Made by a program: the position numbers and the translations under genes | Shown here: in pieces, positions 6,466-49,351 of the stretch | Numbering within the stretch: position 1 is the stretch's first letter | Layout of the letters: each line of letters starts with the position of its first letter | Origin: Anaerolineae bacterium | GTDB taxonomy: Bacteria > Chloroflexota > Anaerolineae > Aggregatilineales > Phototrophicaceae | Assembly: GCA_034437535.1 (NCBI GenBank) | Contig: DAOTTZ010000029.1 | Location: 6,367 to 70,366 of the forward strand | DNA: 64,000 nt | Direction of reading: 5' to 3' | The notes under the pieces: model-generated | What the model saw: only the letters and a program-made list of their open reading frames with translations | Databases searched by the model: none | Told to the model about the DNA's origin: nothing

Positions 6466-7296
6466 TTAATAATAAATAATGGCATATACAATTGTGCCGA
6501 CGAAGTGAGCATCCGCCCGCTGAAAGAGATACGCGGGTGACGCCGGTGTGTAAAGTTGAAGCAACCTGTCGAAATCATCAACCGGCAGATGTGGGCGGAT
6601 CAATGGCGCGGTGTGACAGGCAAACAACGCAGAAAGATAATCAACCACCGGCGGCGGAAACGGCGGGCGATAACTGACAGAAGCCACCGCAACTTGCAGA
6701 TCCAACCGGCGGCAGGCGGCATAAAATGCCGCTTCGTAGCGGGTGCCAGCGGCATAGTCAGTCTCGTTGATGGCTTGCTCGTAGGCGGCATCCACCCGTG
6801 CTTGCAGGCCACGATCCCAGGCGTAAAGCGTGGGCCGGATGATGTTGTTCGTCTCCAGCAAGAGCACGCCCCCCGGCTTGAGCATCTGCCGGGCTGATTC
6901 TAAATGCGGGAACAAGTCTAAAAACGGATTTCCCACATATAACACATCAAAGCTGGCAGGCGGGAAGGGTAAAGGCCGCAAGACATCGCCTTGCCGGAAG
7001 TTCAGCCGGTCGTCGGGTGGGCCAGTCTGGGCCAGTTCGTCCGCGTCGATCTCAATACCGGTGACGTGGGCTACGCCAGCATCCAGCAACAACCGGCTCT
7101 TGGTACCGCTACCACAAGCCAGGTCGAGCGCGTCACCCCGCAGGCCGACGGTCGCCATCATTTGCCGCAGGGCCGGCGCGTAAAATTGCGCGGTCAACCG
7201 GGTGATGGCCGCCCATAATGCCGTTTGGTATCGTTCTTGTTCGGGGTGGTCAGGATCCTGAGCCAATGCCGGGATCAAATGGGGTGGGATCAACAT
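6466..7296 (-). CDS. class I SAM-dependent methyltransferase
   Basis: Motif I LDLACGSGT and a post-I acidic residue (GIEID). Track start TTG 7311 lies inside the rpmB terminator hairpin, so ATG 7296 is preferred. Confidence 0.65.
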   Translation of the reverse strand: MLIPPHLIPALAQDPDHPEQERYQTALWAAITRLTAQFYAPALRQMMATVGLRGDALDLACGSGTKSRLLLDAGVAHVTGIEIDADELAQTGPPDDRLNFRQGDVLRPLPFPPASFDVLYVGNPFLDLFPHLESARQMLKPGGVLLLETNNIIRPTLYAWDRGLQARVDAAYEQAINETDYAAGTRYEAAFYAACRRLDLQVAVASVSYRPPFPPPVVDYLSALFACHTAPLIRPHLPVDDFDRLLQLYTPASPAYLFQRADAHFVGTIVYAIIYY

Positions 7297-34593: not shown

Positions 34594-35787
34594 TTATCCG
34601 CGTGGTTCTAGCAGGTCATTTTCCAGCAGATAATCGCGCACCGCTCCCGCCACAACTGCGTTACCATAAGCCGCAAGGTGGAAATCACCATTCCAGTAGA
34701 GCATCTGGCCGGTGTTGAGGCTTTCATCGACGGCGGCTTGCAACGCCGGGAGTGTATCCAGGCAATACCAACCGCGTGTTTCGCATTCCTGCCGCATGGC
34801 TTCCCGGTTGGCTCGCATCTGGTCTAAATACGCTTCGCTCAAGGCACCGTCCAGGTAATCCGCATAGACCAATTCTTTATACGGGATCATGACGATGACG
34901 ACCGGCGCGCCGAACGCCTCATCGATCATGTCGATGCCAGCCTGATAATTGCTCAGGTTGCGCTCGAACCCGTAAGCCACCGCCGCATACGAGTCCGTAT
35001 TGTTGCCGGGTGGATATTCTTCGGTCGTGATGTAGAAGTTGGCCCCCGCCAGTTCGATGACCTGACCATGTTCGTAATTGGAGGAAGACGGCGGCGGGTT
35101 CAGCCGGTTATCCAGCAGATGCAATAAAGCGGAATATTGCCCCAGGCCACGCGGCGGGCGCACCGGGTCCGGGCTGGGGGGCACTTGCAGGCCCCGGATC
35201 CTGTTACGCAATTGATCGAAGTTGTAATCGTCCATCAAGTCGTTATCATACCGTTGCCAGATCACGACACCGGGTTCCAGCGGCAAGGCGAATTCTTCGA
35301 TCATCGCCAATTGACCACCGGGGCCGGTGCCCGGTTGCCCGGCGTTGATGACGTGCCAACCGTATTGAGATTGGAGCCGTTGCACCCAGCAATCCGCCGC
35401 GAACGTCCAGCAGAAGGTGAATGAATCGCCAAAGGCCATAATATCGACCGGCCAGCTTGGCTCCCCGACCCGCAGGCCGACCGGGTGTTCCCAATCTGGC
35501 AAATTGCGGGTGGAAAAGGTAAAGCGGGCATCACGCCAGCGTACCGGGCGATCTTCCAGGCCGGGGGGTAAATGCGCCTGATAGCGCGTGCTGGATTGAA
35601 ACGGCACCGGCGGCAGAATATGCTCTTCTGACCAGGGCACCTGCCTTACACTCTGAATTTCCCCTTGAATTTCAGCCGGGAGCGAATCAAACCCGGCCCG
35701 CAAGAAGACCTCGATCAACACGAAGATCAACAAGGTGCTGAACACCATCAAGCCCAGGTTAATCAGACAACCAGTTACACGTTTCAC
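34594..35787 (-). CDS. SGNH/GDSL-family hydrolase or acyl-esterase with N-terminal membrane anchor
   Basis: GTG start overlapping the upstream stop (GTGA). TM LINLGLMVFSTLLIFVLIEVFL. AFGDSFT block I. Confidence 0.6.
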   Translation of the reverse strand: MKRVTGCLINLGLMVFSTLLIFVLIEVFLRAGFDSLPAEIQGEIQSVRQVPWSEEHILPPVPFQSSTRYQAHLPPGLEDRPVRWRDARFTFSTRNLPDWEHPVGLRVGEPSWPVDIMAFGDSFTFCWTFAADCWVQRLQSQYGWHVINAGQPGTGPGGQLAMIEEFALPLEPGVVIWQRYDNDLMDDYNFDQLRNRIRGLQVPPSPDPVRPPRGLGQYSALLHLLDNRLNPPPSSSNYEHGQVIELAGANFYITTEEYPPGNNTDSYAAVAYGFERNLSNYQAGIDMIDEAFGAPVVIVMIPYKELVYADYLDGALSEAYLDQMRANREAMRQECETRGWYCLDTLPALQAAVDESLNTGQMLYWNGDFHLAAYGNAVVAGAVRDYLLENDLLEPRG

Positions 35788-37937
35788 GGATTCATCCTTC
35801 GAAATTCAATCCAATCGATCATCAAGCCCAGATCACGGCCACCGGGTGCGGCAGTCGTCGCCGTCTCGAACGTAAGGCTCAGGTGAACCCCCTCCCCGAC
35901 CAAAGCGGCTGGTAGATCCACCGTATATTCTGCCAGGGCCGCTGGCCCCAACGCCGCCGCCCCGACGACCGTATCATCCAGGCGGATTGTCACCGTCTTG
36001 GCCCGCTGGAAGCTCTGCGCGGAGAAAGCCAACGTATACGCCCCCGGCGGTAAATCAACGTAGAGCGTGGCGGGGGTCGGTGGCTCGCCCGTCCAACGAG
36101 CGGTCAAACCGCCGAAGTCCTCACGCCAATACCAGCCCCAACCGGTGTAAGTTTCATCGGCCGGCCCACCGATGTCAACCCGGTAGATGCCCGGCTCAAC
36201 TTCCGGCGGGGTACGGGGCGGGCACCCTGCCGGGTGCCAGTGCGTGCGGTAGGCGATGGCCTGCCCTTCGATGAAGACCGGACACAACAGATCCGGCAGA
36301 CTGTTGAAGTAACCGATCATCTCGCGCACGGATTCACCGTTGGGCGATGGTACAAAATCCTTATGGATGACGATGTAACCCAGCGGCCACTCCGGGATGA
36401 TCCGCCGCAATTGTGACTCTACCAATTCCGGGTTGAGGTCAATCCGCTGGCCGATCCAACTCAAGAGCGGATCGCCCGTCCGCAGGTAGAAGAAATGCTC
36501 TAACGGTGCCCGCGCTAAAAAGCCGTTGACCATCCGCCGGCCATGCGCCAGCCCGTAATATTGAAACGCGATGGCCTCCGCATTGCCGACCAGCAATTCC
36601 CCGGTTCCAACCCCACTGGGAGCCTGCACGATGACGTAATCTTGCGCCACATCTTCCGCCCCCATCGCCGCGTAGAAGTCATACGGCGCGACAATCGGTT
36701 GGAGTGGCCCCGGTTGATACAGGCGCAAGGTCGCCACCAGCAAGAGAGCCGCCGCTGTCATCAGCCCGGCCCGGCGCGGGAGCGTCCAGCCCCGCAAGAT
36801 CGGCGTCCAGGTCTTCGCGGTGAAGATCAAACCGGCGATGACGTAAACCGGCCCCACCCGCCAGGGCATCCGAAAGTTGCCGTCGGTCAGATCGAACACC
36901 ACGCGATACGGCATCGGGATCGTCAAGCCGAAGACCTGCCAATCCGGGCCAATCGCCAGTATCATCGGCGGGAGCATGAGCGCGAACCACAACCAGCGAT
37001 CACGCGGCAGGTCATCCCGCCGCCAGCCGACGACCAGAGACGCCAGCACCGCAATCATGACGAAGCCGCCCAACGTCGGCACATCCCAGTGCCACCAGCG
37101 ATCATACGTCCATAAAAATCCGCCCGGAAACGGAATCCCCGGTCGGTCTTCCACCACGCCGGGCACAAAACTGCCATCCGGCCCCTGTAGAATATAACTC
37201 AGCGGCCCGGCGATCCACAGCAATGCCAACGCGACGGCCACGATGCCACTACCGACCGCGATGATCTGCCCCCGATGCGGACTTCGCCACAGGTCACGCA
37301 GGCCCACCGGCACGATCAACAACGCCAGCATCAGCGGAAATTGTAGATCGGTCAGCACCATCGCCCATAAGCCGATGGTCATCACGCCGCCCCAGGCCAG
37401 CGCGCGCCGGATCTGCCCGGTGTTGATCGCGCTGACGACCTGCCGCCACAACAACAGATGCACCGGGAGCCAGAACCAGCCGATCAGGTTGATGTGGGTG
37501 TTGTAATAGAAGTACCGTACCAGCGGTGTCGCTTGCAGGGCCGTCCCGGCCAGAAAAGCCAATCCCGGCGAGACGCCTTCCGCCCGCAAGTACACGTAGA
37601 ACAGATACCCCATCAGCGTAATCGCCACCCAGGTGATGAGCGTCATCGCCGTCAGCGTACCCGTCACTGGCTCCAGCACTGCCCACAACGGAAACCAGAA
37701 CAGCGACAACGTGGTATAGGCGAAGTTGCCGACGAACGGATACAGGATGTAATTACTTTGGTAGAGGTCAAGGCCGGGGGTCGTCAGGGCTTCCCGCGTC
37801 CACCAGAAGTTCCAATGGAAGTGAAAGTAATCATAGCCAGCGGCCAGGCTCCCATTGGCGAACACCAGCGGGTAGATCGTTAAAAACGCCAGCATCAGGT
37901 AACCACCCAATGCCAGCGCATGATGTCGCAGGTTCAA
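35784..37937 (-). CDS. large polytopic GT-C-type membrane glycosyltransferase-like protein
   Basis: TTG start with AGGAG SD. ~12-14 TM helices with Trp/Tyr-rich loops, then ~250-aa C-terminal soluble domain. Confidence 0.55.
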   Translation of the reverse strand: MNLRHHALALGGYLMLAFLTIYPLVFANGSLAAGYDYFHFHWNFWWTREALTTPGLDLYQSNYILYPFVGNFAYTTLSLFWFPLWAVLEPVTGTLTAMTLITWVAITLMGYLFYVYLRAEGVSPGLAFLAGTALQATPLVRYFYYNTHINLIGWFWLPVHLLLWRQVVSAINTGQIRRALAWGGVMTIGLWAMVLTDLQFPLMLALLIVPVGLRDLWRSPHRGQIIAVGSGIVAVALALLWIAGPLSYILQGPDGSFVPGVVEDRPGIPFPGGFLWTYDRWWHWDVPTLGGFVMIAVLASLVVGWRRDDLPRDRWLWFALMLPPMILAIGPDWQVFGLTIPMPYRVVFDLTDGNFRMPWRVGPVYVIAGLIFTAKTWTPILRGWTLPRRAGLMTAAALLLVATLRLYQPGPLQPIVAPYDFYAAMGAEDVAQDYVIVQAPSGVGTGELLVGNAEAIAFQYYGLAHGRRMVNGFLARAPLEHFFYLRTGDPLLSWIGQRIDLNPELVESQLRRIIPEWPLGYIVIHKDFVPSPNGESVREMIGYFNSLPDLLCPVFIEGQAIAYRTHWHPAGCPPRTPPEVEPGIYRVDIGGPADETYTGWGWYWREDFGGLTARWTGEPPTPATLYVDLPPGAYTLAFSAQSFQRAKTVTIRLDDTVVGAAALGPAALAEYTVDLPAALVGEGVHLSLTFETATTAAPGGRDLGLMIDWIEFRRMNP

Positions 37938-45907: not shown

Positions 45908-45983
45908 GTACCTGTAGCTCAGTGGATAGAGCGTTGGTCTACGGAACCAAAAGTCGTAGGTTCGAATCCTACCAGGTACGCCA
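45908..45983 (+). tRNA. tRNA-Arg (anticodon ACG), CCA encoded
   Basis: Manual cloverleaf: acceptor GTACCTG / CAGGTAC, D-arm GCTC-AGTGGATA-GAGC, anticodon stem TTGGT / ACCAA with loop CTACGGA (anticodon ACG), 5-nt variable loop, T-arm GTAGG-TTCGAAT-CCTAC, discriminator G, CCA. Confidence 0.9.
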
Positions 45984-46089: not shown

Positions 46090-48081
46090 GTGAGGATGTC
46101 TTCATTTATGGAACCTGATATACAACGCTTACAATACTTAGAGTTACTGGCCGCCCAATATCCATCGCTACGGGCCGTCACAACCGAGATCACCAACCTG
46201 ACCGCCCGCCTGAACCTGCCCAAAGGCACCGAGCATTACGTCTCCGATATTCACGGCGAATACGAAGCCTTCCGCCATATCATGCGGAACGGCTCCGGGT
46301 CGATCAAGCGAAAGATCGACGAAAACTTCGAGATCTTATCTGACGAAGAAAAGCGCGGCCTGGCAACCCTGATCTATTATCCTGAACAGCGGATGTCGTT
46401 GGTGATGTCTGAGGTCGAAAACCCGGACGCCTGGTGCCGGATGATGATCTTGCGCTTAATCAAATTGGTGCGGGCTTTTGCCTCCAAGTACACCCGGCAG
46501 GATGTCGTGCGTTTCATCCCGGATGATTATCAATCCATGTTCATCCACCTGATCTACAGCCAATCCGATATTCCCGCGCAGAAGGATTATTACCAGAGCA
46601 TCATCGAGACGATCATCGAGACGGATAGTGCCCGCGATGTCATCCAGGCCTTCTGTGAGTTGATCCAGCGGTTGGCAGTGTCGCATCTGCATGTCATCGG
46701 GGATATTTACGACCGAGGCCCCGGCGCAGAGCATGTGATGGATCTCATCATGGACTTCCACAACGTCGATATTCAGTGGGGCAACCATGACATTTTGTGG
46801 ATGGGGGCGGCGGGTGGCAGTCAGGCTTGCATCGCCAATGTGATTCGCATCAGCCTGCGCTATGCCAATACCGACACGCTCGAAACCGGCTACGGCATCA
46901 GCCTATTGCCGCTGGCGTCCTTCGCGATGGACGTTTACGGCGATGACCCGTGCGAACAATTCCGGCCCAAGCTCAACGATAAGCTGGAATTGGAATTCAC
47001 CGAACATGAGGTCGGTCTGTTCGCCCGGATGCAAAAGGCGATCACCATCATCCAGATGAAGGTCGAAGCGCAGATCATCATGCGGCGGCCACATTACCAC
47101 ATGGAAGACCGGCTCTTGCTGGATAAGATCGACTACGACGCCGGCACCATCACGCTGAATGGCAAAACCTACCCGCTGATCGACTCGCACTTGCCGACGA
47201 TTGACCCGGAAGACCCCTACCGGCTGACCGATGCCGAAGCCGCCGTCGTTGAGAAGTTCGTCCAGTCCTTTGCCAATAGCCAGCGACTCCAGAAGCATGT
47301 GCGCTTTCTTTATGCCAAAGGCAGTATGTACCGCGTGTACAACGGCAACCTGCTTTATCATGGGTGCATCGTGATGAACGAAGACGGCAGTTTCCACGAG
47401 TTCGAAGTCGAAGACGGATCGTACTCTGCCAAAGCCTTTATGGATCGTGTGGATCGGCTGACCCGGCAGGGATACTTCAGCACCGATGACCCGGCGCGGA
47501 AGCAATACGGCCTGGATGCGACGTGGTATCTATGGAGCGGCGCACATTCGCCGTTGTTTGGCAAAGACAAAATGGCGACCTTCGAACGGTATTTCATCGC
47601 CGAAAAAGAAACCCACCAGGAGACGCGCAACCCCTATTATGAGTTCCGTGACCGCGAAGACATCGCACTCAAGATTCTGCGCGAATTCGGCGCGGATGAA
47701 GAAAACGGCCACATCATCAACGGGCATGTGCCGGTCAAGGTCAAGCAGGGGGAGAGTCCGGTCAAGGCGAACGGCAAATTGCTGGTGATCGACGGTGGCT
47801 TGGCGGAAGCCTATCAAGCGGTGACCGGGATCGCCGGTTATACGCTGATCTTCAACTCTTACGGGTTGTTGCTGGCCTCTCACCATCCCTTCCAAACGAC
47901 ACAATACGCCATCGAAAACGGCTACGATCACTTTTCCGAGACCCGCATCCTGGAGACCAACCGGGGCCGGTTGCGCATCCGTACCACTGATGAAGGCCAG
48001 GCCATCCAGGATCGCGTGCAGGATTTGCGCGATTTACTCCAGGCTTACCGCGCCGGGTTAATTAAAGTGCGTGACCGTTGA
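46090..48081 (+). CDS. fbp: fructose-1,6-bisphosphatase class 3
   Basis: Collinear with Bacillus class-3 FBPase: NLPKGTEHYVSDIHGEYEAF, HLHVIGDIYDRGP, VDIQWGNHDILWMGAAGGS, TFERYFIAEKETHQETRNPYY, NGHVPV...KANGKLLVIDGG. Start is GTG 46090, ATG 46096 or ATG 46108. Confidence 0.85.
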   Translation: MRMSSFMEPDIQRLQYLELLAAQYPSLRAVTTEITNLTARLNLPKGTEHYVSDIHGEYEAFRHIMRNGSGSIKRKIDENFEILSDEEKRGLATLIYYPEQRMSLVMSEVENPDAWCRMMILRLIKLVRAFASKYTRQDVVRFIPDDYQSMFIHLIYSQSDIPAQKDYYQSIIETIIETDSARDVIQAFCELIQRLAVSHLHVIGDIYDRGPGAEHVMDLIMDFHNVDIQWGNHDILWMGAAGGSQACIANVIRISLRYANTDTLETGYGISLLPLASFAMDVYGDDPCEQFRPKLNDKLELEFTEHEVGLFARMQKAITIIQMKVEAQIIMRRPHYHMEDRLLLDKIDYDAGTITLNGKTYPLIDSHLPTIDPEDPYRLTDAEAAVVEKFVQSFANSQRLQKHVRFLYAKGSMYRVYNGNLLYHGCIVMNEDGSFHEFEVEDGSYSAKAFMDRVDRLTRQGYFSTDDPARKQYGLDATWYLWSGAHSPLFGKDKMATFERYFIAEKETHQETRNPYYEFRDREDIALKILREFGADEENGHIINGHVPVKVKQGESPVKANGKLLVIDGGLAEAYQAVTGIAGYTLIFNSYGLLLASHHPFQTTQYAIENGYDHFSETRILETNRGRLRIRTTDEGQAIQDRVQDLRDLLQAYRAGLIKVRDR

Positions 48082-48125
48082 GCGGCTGGCTCCCGCTGGA
48101 TGATAAACCGGATGGTAAATCGAGT

Positions 48126-48300
48126 GTGCATTTCATTTCAGTGCGGTTTTTGCCCTCACCCCCTCAGTCCCGGTTTGCACTAAAAATGTGCGTATTCGGA
48201 AGGTCAATCAACCCCTCGCCTAGTCCCGCAGGGACGGTTGGAAGAGGGGTGGCGCGAAGCGCCGGGGTGAGGGCTGATTTTGCACTAACTTGAAATGCAC
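48126..48300. repeat. ~175-bp nested inverted-repeat element (MITE-like or structured RNA)
   Basis: Terminal IRs GTGCATTTCA...TGAAATGCAC, second tier AGTGC/GCACT, inner 11-bp GCCCTCACCCC...GGGGTGAGGGC. Interior hairpins CCCCTC/GAGGGG, GTCCC-GCA-GGGAC, GGCGC-GAA-GCGCC. Intergenic between fbp and the AAA+ ATPase gene. Confidence 0.5.
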
Positions 48301-48403
48301 CCATAAACGATGGAACGTTGCGCGGATCGCCAAGCCCATTTATGATTAAGGTATGTGCTGTAAGATCTTCCCCAATAACTGTAAGAAAGAGACCTAAAAC
48401 CTT

Positions 48404-49351
48404 ATGTTCAAGGACATTCAAGAAGTCAGCGCGGCCCTGAGCAAACAGCAATACATCTCAACCGATGAAATCTCAACCGTGAGCTTCCTGGCGAACCAGT
48501 TAGGCAAGCCCCTGCTGGCCGAAGGCCCGGCAGGAGTCGGCAAGACTGAACTGGCGAAAGCCTGGGCCGGGGCAACCGGCAAGCGTTTGATCCGCCTGCA
48601 ATGCTATGAAGGATTGGATGAAAACAAAGCCCTTTACGAATGGGAATATGCCAAGCAGATGCTCTACACGCAACTCCTGCGTGATAAACTGAGCGAAATC
48701 CTGTCCTCTGCGGATACCCTGACCGACGCGGCAGACCGGCTGGCCCAAGAAGAAGACGTGTTCTTCAGCGAACGCTTCTTGCTGGCACGTCCCCTGCTGG
48801 AAGCCATCACAGCCGATGAGCCGGTGGTCTTGCTCATCGACGAGATCGACCGGGCCGATGCCGAGTTTGAGGCATTCCTGCTGGAAATCTTGAGCGACTT
48901 CCAGGTGTCGATCCCGGAAGTCGGCACAATAATGGCCCGCCACAAGCCCGATGTCCTGCTGACCAGCAACAACACCCGTGAGCTTTCCGAAGCTCTCAAG
49001 CGGCGGTGTCTGTATCTGTTTGTCGATTATCCCGCCCACGATTCCGAACTCAACATCGTGCGGATGCGTGTGCCTGAATTGCGGGAAAAGCTGGCGGAAC
49101 AAGCGGTTGAAGTCGTGCAAAATCTGCGGCGGCTAGATCTGAAAAAGAACCCCAGTGTCTCGGAGACCATCGACTGGGCCAAAGCCCTGGTGATGCTCAA
49201 CGCTGACACGCTGGATAAGAAGACGCTGGAAACAACCCTGACGGTCTTGCTCAAGCACGAAAGCGATGTGCAAAAGGCCCGGCGTGCCCTGGTGGATGGT
49301 GGCCCGCCGGTTGACCGCCGACCGGGGCGGGGTCGCTCCGACTGGAATTAA
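48404..49351 (+). CDS. MoxR/CbbQ-NorQ-type AAA+ ATPase (AAA_5)
   Basis: Walker A GPAGVGKT, Walker B VLLIDEIDRA, RLQCYEGLDENKALYEWEY resembling the CbbQ/MoxR post-Walker-A segment. No VWA-domain partner gene adjacent. Confidence 0.75.
   Translation: MFKDIQEVSAALSKQQYISTDEISTVSFLANQLGKPLLAEGPAGVGKTELAKAWAGATGKRLIRLQCYEGLDENKALYEWEYAKQMLYTQLLRDKLSEILSSADTLTDAADRLAQEEDVFFSERFLLARPLLEAITADEPVVLLIDEIDRADAEFEAFLLEILSDFQVSIPEVGTIMARHKPDVLLTSNNTRELSEALKRRCLYLFVDYPAHDSELNIVRMRVPELREKLAEQAVEVVQNLRRLDLKKNPSVSETIDWAKALVMLNADTLDKKTLETTLTVLLKHESDVQKARRALVDGGPPVDRRPGRGRSDWN

Follow-up and report, generated by a model that had tools for sequence, protein, structure and literature searches.

The spacer between fbp and a MoxR-like ATPase gene in the window (the whole 64-kb stretch of DNA that was analysed) holds a nested inverted repeat of 179 bp at positions 48124-48302, which is probably one copy of a non-coding, non-autonomous, mosaic palindromic DNA repeat belonging to a small, patchy and modular family in Anaerolineae (Chloroflexota). 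The best reading is that the family resembles REP/BIME/REPIN repeats and uses BoxC/TM-like words. A description of REP/BIME-like mosaic palindromic repeats in Anaerolineae was not found in the literature, and the element documents such repeats there, in words that are the GC-rich vocabulary of the enigmatic BoxC/TM motifs; were a transposase to be linked to the family, the origin of BoxC-type motifs might be explained by way of it. The feature itself is probably of an ordinary kind, albeit from an undescribed family, and its local consequences are probably modest, amounting to structure at the 3' end of the fbp mRNA.

The initial annotation had described a nested inverted repeat with imperfect termini, a perfect 11-bp inner stem and interior hairpins, all of which were recovered where it had placed them by an inverted-repeat search combined with an MFE fold. 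The arms returned by the search (48126-48162 and 48264-48300) are 37 nt long, 76% complementary and 101 nt apart, and pair perfectly over their outer 10 nt (GTGCATTTCA/TGAAATGCAC) and inner 11 nt (GCCCTCACCCC/GGGGTGAGGGC); the whole 64-kb window has just one other inverted repeat whose arms reach at least 20 nt within 400 nt, and it is the shorter of the two. Comparing the element with related copies, including those on L005 (a contig, 6.8 kb long, from the MAG of another member of Anaerolineae), revealed a 12-nt terminal motif, GGGTGCATTTCA/TGAAATGCACCC, and the bounds were therefore corrected to 48124-48302. The parts of the element, in window coordinates, are as follows.

48124-48302, no strand: whole element, a nested palindromic, non-coding repeat (arms and fold; bounds from the 12-nt termini common to the L005 copies)
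48124-48135, + strand: left terminal 12-mer GTGTGCATTTCA, one mismatch to the family consensus GGGTGCATTTCA (ungapped alignment)
48126-48162, + strand: left arm, type A, comprising the terminal motif, a variable spacer of 15-16 nt and the Y' tract GCCCTCACCCC
48152-48162, + strand: 5' half of the inner stem, GCCCTCACCCC, including the BoxC/TM-type word CCCTCACCC
48170-48199, + strand: interior hairpin 1 (CCGG..TGCAC..GTGCG..CGG; MFE fold)
48211-48250, + strand: interior Y-R stem, ACCCCTC/GAGGGGT (MFE fold), enclosing the hairpin GTCCC-GCA-GGGAC at 48223-48235
48251-48263, + strand: mini-hairpin GGCGC-GAA-GCGCC between the R and R' tracts (MFE fold)
48264-48274, + strand: 3' half of the inner stem, GGGGTGAGGGC, including GGGTGAGGG and fitting GGGGWSAS
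48264-48300, + strand: right arm, type A inverted, comprising the R' tract GGGGTGAGGGC, a spacer and the terminal motif
48291-48302, + strand: right terminal 12-mer TGAAATGCACCC, identical at L005:6728-6739

The structure is real and lies far beyond chance on both strands. The + strand, whose fold contains the three interior hairpins listed above, reaches -90.2 kcal/mol against -57.1 +/- 4.2 for shuffled sequences (z -7.8, with 0 of 200 shuffles equally stable), the - strand reaches -86.6 kcal/mol (z -8.0), and folding as single-stranded DNA gives -42.7 (z -5.4).

Relatives of the element account for the family reading. When the arm consensus was scanned against 185,579 species genomes, a single locus was returned, namely L005, and its 6.8 kb contain three related elements, one per intergenic spacer examined. 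The left arm of the window element and L005:942-979 (L005-1) are identical at 37 of 38 positions, and the right cores of the two at 31 of 34, an identity that extends well past the 20 bases specified in the scan pattern. L005-1 lies antisense to both of its flanking genes, which encode a DUF3352 protein and an unnamed secreted protein, each on the opposite strand, and it is a chimera that joins a type-A left arm to a type-B right arm (CTGAGTCGTTACG). The second copy, L005-2 (L005:4199-4318, z -5.35), has the same GCCCTCACCCC/GGGGTGAGGGC stem as the window element inside different 15-nt arms, and the third, L005-3 (L005:~6575-6739), ends in TGAAATGCACCC, with the GAGGGC core 16 nt from this terminal 12-mer both there and in the window. 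The folds of L005-1 and L005-3 are not significantly better than those of shuffles (z -1.1 and -1.6). A further, probable relative lies on L006, a metagenome contig of 67% GC in which a 24-nt segment is identical to the source genome; the members known are the window element, the three on L005 and this probable one.

The left terminal 12-mer of the window element gives ungapped alignments with L005:940-951 and, after reverse complementing them, with window 48291-48302 and L005:6728-6739, and the four type-A arms as a whole align ungapped except at one terminal position (one arm being a base shorter), with the termini and core conserved and the middle variable (n = 4). Against a profile of this arm type, nhmmer gives E 1.9e-9 for the left arm and E 7.3e-10, on the - strand, for the right arm. 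Between the arms, interior hairpin 1 is missing from L005-1, where it falls in an alignment gap, and the position of the hairpin inside the Y-R stem is taken in L005-1 and L005-3 by GCCGC/GCGGC, with two of the five pairs changed on both sides and pairing complete (100%); for the mini-hairpin, L005-1 has GCG-TGA-CGC as its equivalent and L006 has GGTTGC-GAC-GCAACC, making three different stems in all. The words CCCTCNCCC/GGGNGAGGG occur seven times in the 6.8 kb of L005 versus practically never in 133 kb of eight other Anaerolineae-type genomes.

The arms are bipartite, each made of the 12-nt terminal motif GGGTGCATTTCA, a variable spacer of 15-16 nt and the 11-nt pyrimidine tract GCCCTCACCCC, the latter pairing with the purine partner GGGGTGAGGGC of the opposite arm. 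The hairpin modules between the arms are exchangeable: a CCCCTC/GAGGGG stem around a variable GC hairpin, a mini-hairpin with a 3-nt loop immediately before the closing stem and, in the window copy, an extra, AT-richer hairpin. All five elements are intergenic, in spacers of tandem as well as divergent genes and in both orientations; modules have been shuffled between copies, orientation to the flanking genes has not been kept, and the loci that have homologous arms and cores are unrelated. The possibility that the type-A ends at L005:940 and L005:6739 bound a single transposon of 5.8 kb was rejected, as there is no transposase between them, the genes there being those for the DUF3352 protein, a TPR protein and SurE.

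The features around the element are given below.

46090-48081, + strand: fbp, class III (Firmicute-type) FBPase (Pfam PF06874, E 3.5e-284)
48078-48293, + strand: spurious ORF of 71 aa through the element, TTG start, no Pfam match, no homologue
48103-48123, + strand: left flank, candidate direct repeats ATAAACCGGATGG (48103-48115) and TAAATCGA (48116-48123)
48164-48451, - strand: spurious ORF of 95 aa, TTG start, antisense and overlapping the start of the ATPase gene, no Pfam match
48303-48313, + strand: right flank, direct repeat ATAAACGATGG, flush with the right terminus
48316-48352, + strand: block downstream of the element, conserved upstream of the ATPase homologue in L013 (alignment)
48404-49351, + strand: MoxR-like AAA_5 ATPase gene (Pfam; JGI name MoxR-like)

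Pfam and the JGI name agree with fbp and a MoxR-like (putatively CbbQ-type) ATPase gene as the two neighbours first given, both of which are co-directional with the element as placed here, and the fbp stop codon precedes the element by 42 nt. The two small ORFs, suspected from the outset of being by-products of the repeat, appear to be just that, a conclusion supported by their lack of Pfam matches and of any credible homologue: the 71-aa product has no homologue among 5.8 billion proteins, and the 95-aa one obtained only three marginal matches (E ~3e-4) among 1.84 billion representatives, all of them repeat-derived ORFs, one of which includes the core-module translation ALTPSLRATPLP. Likewise, a concatenated query of all six frames from the two elements (window and L005-1) produced 8000 word candidates, with no match at E <= 10. 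In the annotation, both ORFs should be dropped, and the label for the spacer should be that of a repeat element, not of an RNA gene.

The block conserved in L013 contains TTGCGC (48318-48323) and, after 17 nt, TATGAT (48341-48346), a promoter-like arrangement that falls short of the strict consensus scan (the promoter and terminator scan of 47900-48500 returned no sites), and it may well be the ATPase gene's own promoter. As the block lies downstream of the element, the latter is probably outside the ATPase leader. The element probably belongs to the fbp 3' UTR, ahead of that putative promoter, and, so placed, it would be neither a leader nor a riboregulator of the ATPase gene. If it is transcribed with fbp, its stable stem-loop could act as a barrier to 3'-to-5' exonucleases or as a transcript-end structure, as REP, BIME and ERIC sequences do, a putative role at the fbp 3' end.

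Homologues of the ATPase are 80-90% identical across Anaerolineae, and at nine of nine other loci in Anaerolineae-type genomes the element is absent upstream of close homologues; the upstream genes at these loci are different from fbp, and the upstream spacers, where readable, measure 36-176 bp and are all free of it. Among the ATPase loci compared, fbp adjoins the ATPase gene only in the source organism, and the orthologous-site comparison recovered no empty site, i.e., no fbp-ATPase junction devoid of the element, which sits exactly at a synteny break with other Anaerolineae. The neighbourhood of the ATPase gene, however, differs at almost every sampled locus, element or no element.

Within the source genome, the search for further copies that had been suggested found none in ~72 kb (the 64-kb window and 8 kb of extension to its left). 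Four independent short-read assemblies run unbroken through the element, which is hence not a high-copy, near-identical repeat there. Evidence of recent movement was not found, transposase domains are absent from the window and L005 proteins examined, and no RAYT gene was found in the window. Scans of viral contigs with five patterns yielded only a chance small hairpin (L007-L009) and otherwise nothing, and neither 72,556 plasmids nor 5,426 E. coli genomes gave a significant blastn match. An integron attC site was also considered and rejected, the ends having no RYYYAAC/GTTRRRY core sites and the surroundings no cassette or integrase context.

The family may spread or be reshuffled at the DNA level, possibly by a transposase recognising the hairpin or the terminus (perhaps a HUH tyrosine enzyme of the RAYT/TIRYT type) or, alternatively, by recombination between copies at the common GCCCTCACCCC core. 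A bolder and rather unlikely extension would be an undescribed class of modular nested-hairpin elements crossing phyla, with BoxC-type GCCCTCACCCC/GGGGTGAGGGC cores and conserved bipartite ends, propagated as single-stranded hairpins by RAYT/TIRYT-like HUH transposases; if true, mobile elements would be the origin of the BoxC/PIT/TM motifs, long unexplained, that Proteobacteria and cyanobacteria have.

Several other explanations deserve weighing against the mosaic repeat. The first guess had been a MITE-like repeat, and in the general sense of a repeat this holds, as related modules occur at unrelated L005 loci and probably on L006. A classical MITE in the strict sense, i.e., a deletion derivative of an IS with terminal inverted repeats of 12 nt or longer, moved in trans by a DDE transposase into the stretch from fbp to the ATPase promoter with a target duplication of ~8-11 bp, is nevertheless an unlikely explanation: conserved inverted 12-nt termini (one mismatch) are common to two genomes, the 179 bp have no coding capacity, the nine other ATPase loci examined do not have the element, and a direct repeat, ATAAAC(CG)GATGG/ATAAACGATGG, flanks it with its right copy flush with the terminus, but the left copy is 8 nt off the other terminus, 72 kb yielded no second copy, the assemblies do not break at the element, and the window and L005 proteins examined include no transposase. 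As for the direct repeat, both ATAAACCGGATGG (the copy 8 nt away) and TAAATCGA match ATAAACGATGG, with a local alignment score for the flanks that is reached by chance with P 0.02-0.03 and is thus marginal; the sequence predicted at the fbp-ATPase junction before insertion would be ...GATGATAAAC(C)GATGGAACGTTGCGC.... The L005 copies, moreover, have a single type-A end each and mixed arm types, which a mosaic of the REP/BIME kind fits better than a cut-and-paste unit does. The other early proposal, a dedicated long-hairpin RNA (6S-like, an attenuator or a riboregulator), now looks unlikely, and a strand-specific structured RNA more broadly, whether an sRNA or a 3'-UTR or leader regulating fbp or the ATPase gene with the DNA palindrome as its template, is quite improbable. 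The multi-branched fold is very stable, interior hairpins differ in a compensatory manner between copies, the element is co-directional with both neighbours, and a few G-U pairs make the + strand slightly the stabler (-90.2 vs. -86.6); against this, z is close to -8 on both strands, no promoter-like or terminator-like site was found around the element in the scan of 47900-48500, the L005-1 copy is antisense to both neighbours, copies are partial and chimeric, and the homologous ATPase genes have no element upstream, the conserved promoter-like block lying downstream of it here. Rfam, which was to be consulted, also offers no family: only a tRNA passes the gathering thresholds in the whole window, and 47800-48700 at E <= 10 gives merely two chance-level matches, Pseudomon-groES (18.1 bits, threshold 50) and Acido-Lenti-1 (13.6, threshold 37).

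That the element would be a non-B-DNA structure of the BoxC/PIT/TM type, a triplex or cruciform that stalls replication, promotes rearrangement and marks or caused the fbp-ATPase junction, is very improbable. The 9-mers CCCTCACCC and GGGTGAGGG are held in common, intergenic rearrangement in E. coli has been linked to TM loci, the element is exactly at a synteny breakpoint, and the order CCCCTCGCC...GAGGGG...GGGGTGAGGGC recalls TM_ECO, which is defined by the pattern CCCTCNCCC-N3-6-GGGNGAGGG-N3-GGGNGAGGG (Holder et al. 2015, PMC4666352). Membership in TM_ECO was, however, rejected, since the strict published pattern has 0 matches in the window; the element has loops of 23 and 14 nt where the pattern asks for 3-6 and 3 nt, its first purine tract goes no further than GAGGGG, its second is already Watson-Crick paired with the left arm, and, as the ATPase neighbourhood varies with or without the element, the breakpoint needs no special cause. 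That the palindrome is due to chance, or is an ordinary terminator of fbp, and belongs to no family, as its occurring once in the window and right after a gene might suggest, has a next to negligible probability in view of 0 of 200 shuffles being equally stable (z ~-8), of a left arm that is 37/38 identical at an unrelated locus of another genome, and of the negative terminator scan, with no T-run (U-tract) after the stem.

Among the known systems, TIR repeats, which flank genes of RAYT-like "TIRYT" tyrosine transposases (Di Nocera et al. 2013, PMC3733652), are comparable in that they are long and inverted, form families of moderate abundance, are in some cases double palindromes and occur in phyla beyond Proteobacteria. 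Their motif GGGGWSAS fits GGGGTGAG at 48264, a match of only 8 degenerate bases and hence a lead and not a test.

Bacterial MITEs, such as the Correia elements of Neisseria, ERIC/IRU of enterobacteria and Nezha of cyanobacteria, are alike in their size of 100-300 bp, terminal inverted repeats, lack of an ORF, folding into a long hairpin and intergenic insertion, and are often co-transcribed with their neighbours. The element differs from them in that its candidate target-site duplication is not a clean one, that ~72 kb of the source genome gave a single copy, that no parent IS was found, and that its copies elsewhere are chimeric or one-ended instead of unit-length.

BoxC, PIT and TM elements, in which the same 9-mers are used, are found between genes without strand bias and have no associated transposase (PMC4666352). 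The element has the GC-rich words CCCTCNCCC, GGGNGAGGG and GGGGTGAGGGC in common with BoxC/PIT/TM_ECO, and is similarly intergenic, unbiased in strand or orientation and unaccompanied by a transposase; these elements are also patchy among related genomes and sometimes form inverted pairs able to make a larger palindrome. In the present element, by contrast, the loops have grown into hairpins, there are additional outer arms with a conserved 12-nt terminus, and no triplex is required, since the purine tract can pair in Watson-Crick fashion.

On the best reading, the element resembles the REP/BIME/REPIN repeats of Proteobacteria (REP, REPIN and TIR repeats are described in PMC3733652 and PMC3116915). 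Differences from them include the absence of a GTAG/CTAC or CGTC end tag (only GACG, at 48233, is in or beside a stem), arms that are not self-palindromic REP units, a greater length (179 bp) with a 101-nt multi-hairpin interior, and a host phylum that is Chloroflexota; REP/BIME sequences reach tens to hundreds of copies per genome, the counts here being one in 72 kb and, in L005, three in 6.8 kb, and REP/REPIN repeats have a cognate RAYT (a Y1 HUH transposase), for which no gene was found in the window. Like them, however, the element is non-coding and strictly intergenic in both orientations to genes, it is, as in REPINs, an imperfect palindrome in which two inverted units give one long hairpin, its modules, as in BIMEs, are interchangeable between copies (the A/B chimera of L005-1, and L005-2 with the same core in other arms), its copies may be clustered (three in the 6.8 kb of L005), and its expected local effect is on the 3' end of an mRNA.

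The element in the spacer between fbp and the MoxR-like ATPase gene is real, and its parts and neighbours are as follows.

45908-45983, tRNA-Arg(ACG), 106 nt upstream of fbp
46090-48081, plus strand, fbp, a class III (Firmicute-type) fructose-1,6-bisphosphatase (PF06874, E 3.5e-284), upstream of the element
48126-48162 and 48264-48300, inverted arms found by repeat search, 37 nt, 76% complementary, 101 nt apart
48170-48199, 48211-48250 (with 48223-48235 nested inside) and 48251-48263, three hairpins of a multiloop enclosed by the long closing helix
48404-49351, plus strand, AAA_5 ATPase (MoxR-like by JGI name), downstream of the element
after the ATPase gene, minus strand, ELP3-like radical-SAM/GNAT gene

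The arms pair perfectly over their outer 10 nt and an inner 11 nt (GCCCTCACCCC/GGGGTGAGGGC), and the nested inverted repeat with an 11-bp inner stem and at least three interior hairpins that the initial annotation described is present in the repeat search, the fold and the sequence of 47900-48500. The plus-strand RNA fold reaches -90.2 kcal/mol versus -57.1 +/- 4.2 for dinucleotide shuffles (z -7.8; 0 of 200 as stable), the minus strand -86.6 (z -8.0) and the element as ssDNA -42.7 (z -5.4); the stable long-range pairing on which the original proposal depended thus exceeds chance on either strand, and chance is an extremely improbable explanation. Inverted repeats with arms of 20 nt or more within 400 nt number two in the whole 64-kb window, the element being the longer, while the other (36808-36938; 21-nt arms, 81% complementary, 89 nt apart) sits within a 717-aa minus-strand ORF (35784-37937).

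Several metagenomes of microbial mats, as well as MAG GCA_964430415.1, contain the same strain, and in these sources the 322-bp fbp-ATPase spacer is 100% identical, with contigs continuing unbroken through the element. The names carried by close ATPase homologues, and by the single locus retrieved in a scan of species genomes, assign the organism to Anaerolineae/Chloroflexota. Neither of the two TTG-start ORFs lying over it (71 aa on the plus strand, 95 aa on the minus strand) has a Pfam match or a credible homologue, and both appear to be artefacts of the palindrome, as had been supposed. The window has a G+C content of 57.8%; elsewhere in it, two tandem 138-aa response-regulator genes (1271-2103, stop and start overlapping at 1687) are followed by a 398-aa protein without a Pfam match and then a Uma2-family gene.

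A scan of 185,579 species (one genome each, the window's own genome evidently being outside the collection) with the positions common to the two aligned arms (CANNTNAGTGCNNNNTNNGCCCTCACCCC; 20 specified bases, for which about one match is expected by chance) returned a single locus, L005, a 6.8-kb contig of another Anaerolineae MAG. Its left arm is identical to that of the window at 37 of 38 positions, well past the scan pattern, its second block (GAGGGGT-hairpin-GGGGTGAGGGCTGA) at 31 of 34 and in the correct order, and the genes on either side bear no relation to fbp or the ATPase. Three related elements lie on this contig.

L005:940-1064, L005-1, type-A left arm and type-B right arm (CTGAGTCGTTACG)
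L005:4199-4318, L005-2, stem GCCCTCACCCC/GGGGTGAGGGC within differing 15-nt outer arms CACGTAACGACTCAG/CTGGGTCGTTACGTG
L005:~6575-6739, L005-3, ending in ...GGGGAGTGAGGGC-16 nt-TGAAATGCACCC

L005-1, with its two kinds of arm, is therefore a chimera, L005-2 folds with z -5.35, and the end of L005-3 is the right terminus of the window's element with identical spacing. The four type-A arms align ungapped save for one terminal position (one arm being a base shorter) on a plan in which GGGTGCATTTCA, the 12-nt terminus, is separated by a variable stretch of 15-16 nt from GCCCTCAC(C/T)CC, and this shared plan sets the window's element at 48124-48302. The stretch of L005 bounded by its two type-A ends encodes DUF3352, an unknown protein, a TPR protein and SurE, which makes these three separate intergenic elements and rules out a single transposon bounded by those ends. 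The pyrimidine/purine words CCCTCNCCC/GGGNGAGGG number seven in the 6.8 kb, and nested palindromes on such tracts occupy all three of the intergenic spacers examined on L005; element density is 3 per 6.8 kb there, as against a single one in 72 kb of the window's own genome and practically none across the 133 kb from eight other Anaerolineae-type genomes. Orientation relative to genes is not kept between copies: on the coding strand, the window's type-A left arm is the one nearer the upstream gene, whereas both neighbours of L005-1 are on the opposite strand and a further element lies in the spacer of divergent genes.

The latter, on the 67%-GC metagenome contig L006, was the only one retrieved from metagenomes with GTGCGGTTTTTGCCCTCACCCC and is a probable relative, less secure than L005. 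There, 24 nt identical to window 48140-48163 begin a larger nested palindrome (L006:2500-2800, roughly 270 nt, z -4.4), closed by AGGTGAGGGC, built of CCCCTCTCCC/GGGAGAGGGG modules and containing two TM-like CCCTCTCCC/GGGAGAGGG modules; of its sequence, TCTTCCGACC recurs in L005-1 and CGACTCAGG in the L005-2 arm, and the genes beside the palindrome encode a proline-rich protein and a ROK-family kinase. The predicted 100-aa protein P0121 is a tandem series of 37-aa units in which ALTPSLRATPLP occurs, a peptide obtained by translating the GCCCTCACCCC-hairpin-ACCCCTC module antisense, and the module therefore seems to be arrayed in tandem in some other genome.

The element is likely to be a single member of a modular, patchily distributed family of palindromic, non-coding DNA repeats in Anaerolineae. 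Inside the CCCCTC...GAGGGG stem, GTCCC-GCA-GGGAC in the window corresponds to GCCGC-NNN-GCGGC in L005-1 and L005-3, with both bases replaced in two of five pairs and every cell paired, although the sample is tiny and 48 of 500 shuffles equal it; the mini-hairpin before the closing stem reads GGCGC-GAA-GCGCC in the window, GCG-TGA-CGC in L005-1 and GGTTGC-GAC-GCAACC in L006. Such pairing, kept despite changed sequence, points to selection for hairpins or a mechanism maintaining them, and would fit a DNA or an RNA role alike.

A strand-specific RNA, the structured-RNA alternative of the initial annotation, is improbable: both strands fold equally well, as expected of a DNA palindrome, which lends it no support. 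Nor is the element a known RNA, as cmscan of 47800-48700 (E <= 10) gave just two chance-level matches (18.1 and 13.6 bits versus thresholds of 50 and 37), and Rfam at gathering thresholds matched only a tRNA in the whole window, tRNA-Arg(ACG) being its sole Rfam or ARAGORN match. No sigma-70-like promoter or intrinsic terminator was found in a scan of 47900-48500, nor is there a U-run after the closing stem. A classical MITE has in its favour the terminal repeats, the size and the lack of coding capacity, and suggestive flanks: ATAAACGATGG (48303-48313) directly follows the right terminus, ATAAACCGGATGG (48103-48115) stops 8 nt short of the left one, and the intervening TAAATCGA resembles TAAACGA as well, so that a target-site duplication may be present, the local alignment score of the 30-nt flanks being reached at rates of 2% among shuffles and 3% among random genomic pairs. 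The window proteins examined contain no transposase domain, and of the MITE-like repeat originally proposed, the existence of related elements holds (on L005), whereas no second copy was found in the window (exact/mismatch pattern search, blastn at word size 7, nhmmer arm profile) or in 8 kb past its left end; a classical MITE is rather unlikely, and a triplex or rearrangement element very unlikely.

The element is not a conserved leader of the ATPase, as nine loci with close homologues in other genomes (133 kb in total) contain no element or arm and essentially no pyrimidine/purine words; the upstream gene varies among them (TIR_2, permease, UppS, TPP enzyme, glycosyl hydrolase), and the upstream spacer, where readable, spans 36-176 bp. 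The ATPase gene neighbourhood differs in almost every genome sampled, despite 80-90% identity of the protein across many Anaerolineae; CysS-SpoU-RRF-UppS-(two TIR_2 genes)-ATPase recurs at three homologue loci (L010, L012, L015), and in L010 an IS605 OrfB/TnpB gene follows 1.6 kb downstream. The block 48316-48352 (CGTTGCGCGGATCGCCAAGCCCATTTATGATTAAGG; TTGCGC-17-TATGAT), conserved upstream of the homologous gene in another such locus (L013), is probably the ATPase promoter, while scoring below a strict sigma-70 consensus scan; this would place the element between the fbp stop codon and the promoter, probably within the fbp 3' UTR, where a -90 kcal/mol stem-loop would protect or define the fbp transcript end, as REP/BIME/ERIC elements do.

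BoxC/PIT/TM_ECO motifs are intergenic, without strand bias, occasionally found as inverted pairs, and without an associated transposase or known function (PMC4666352). The element uses the same GC-rich words, but its loops are expanded into hairpins and the window contains no instance of the published pattern, so that vocabulary alone is common and membership is rejected. That BoxC-type motifs and HUH-transposase-driven hairpin elements are linked in one cross-phylum family is rather unlikely. The closest architecture is that of REP/BIME/REPIN, in which two inverted units form one hairpin and mosaic modules cluster in intergenic spacers (PMC3116915, PMC3733652), although the element is without the GTAG/CGTC tag. 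A further lead comes from the TIRs flanking RAYT-like "TIRYT" genes, which have GGGGWSAS in common (Di Nocera et al., PMC3733652), a motif that GGGGTGAG at 48264 fits.
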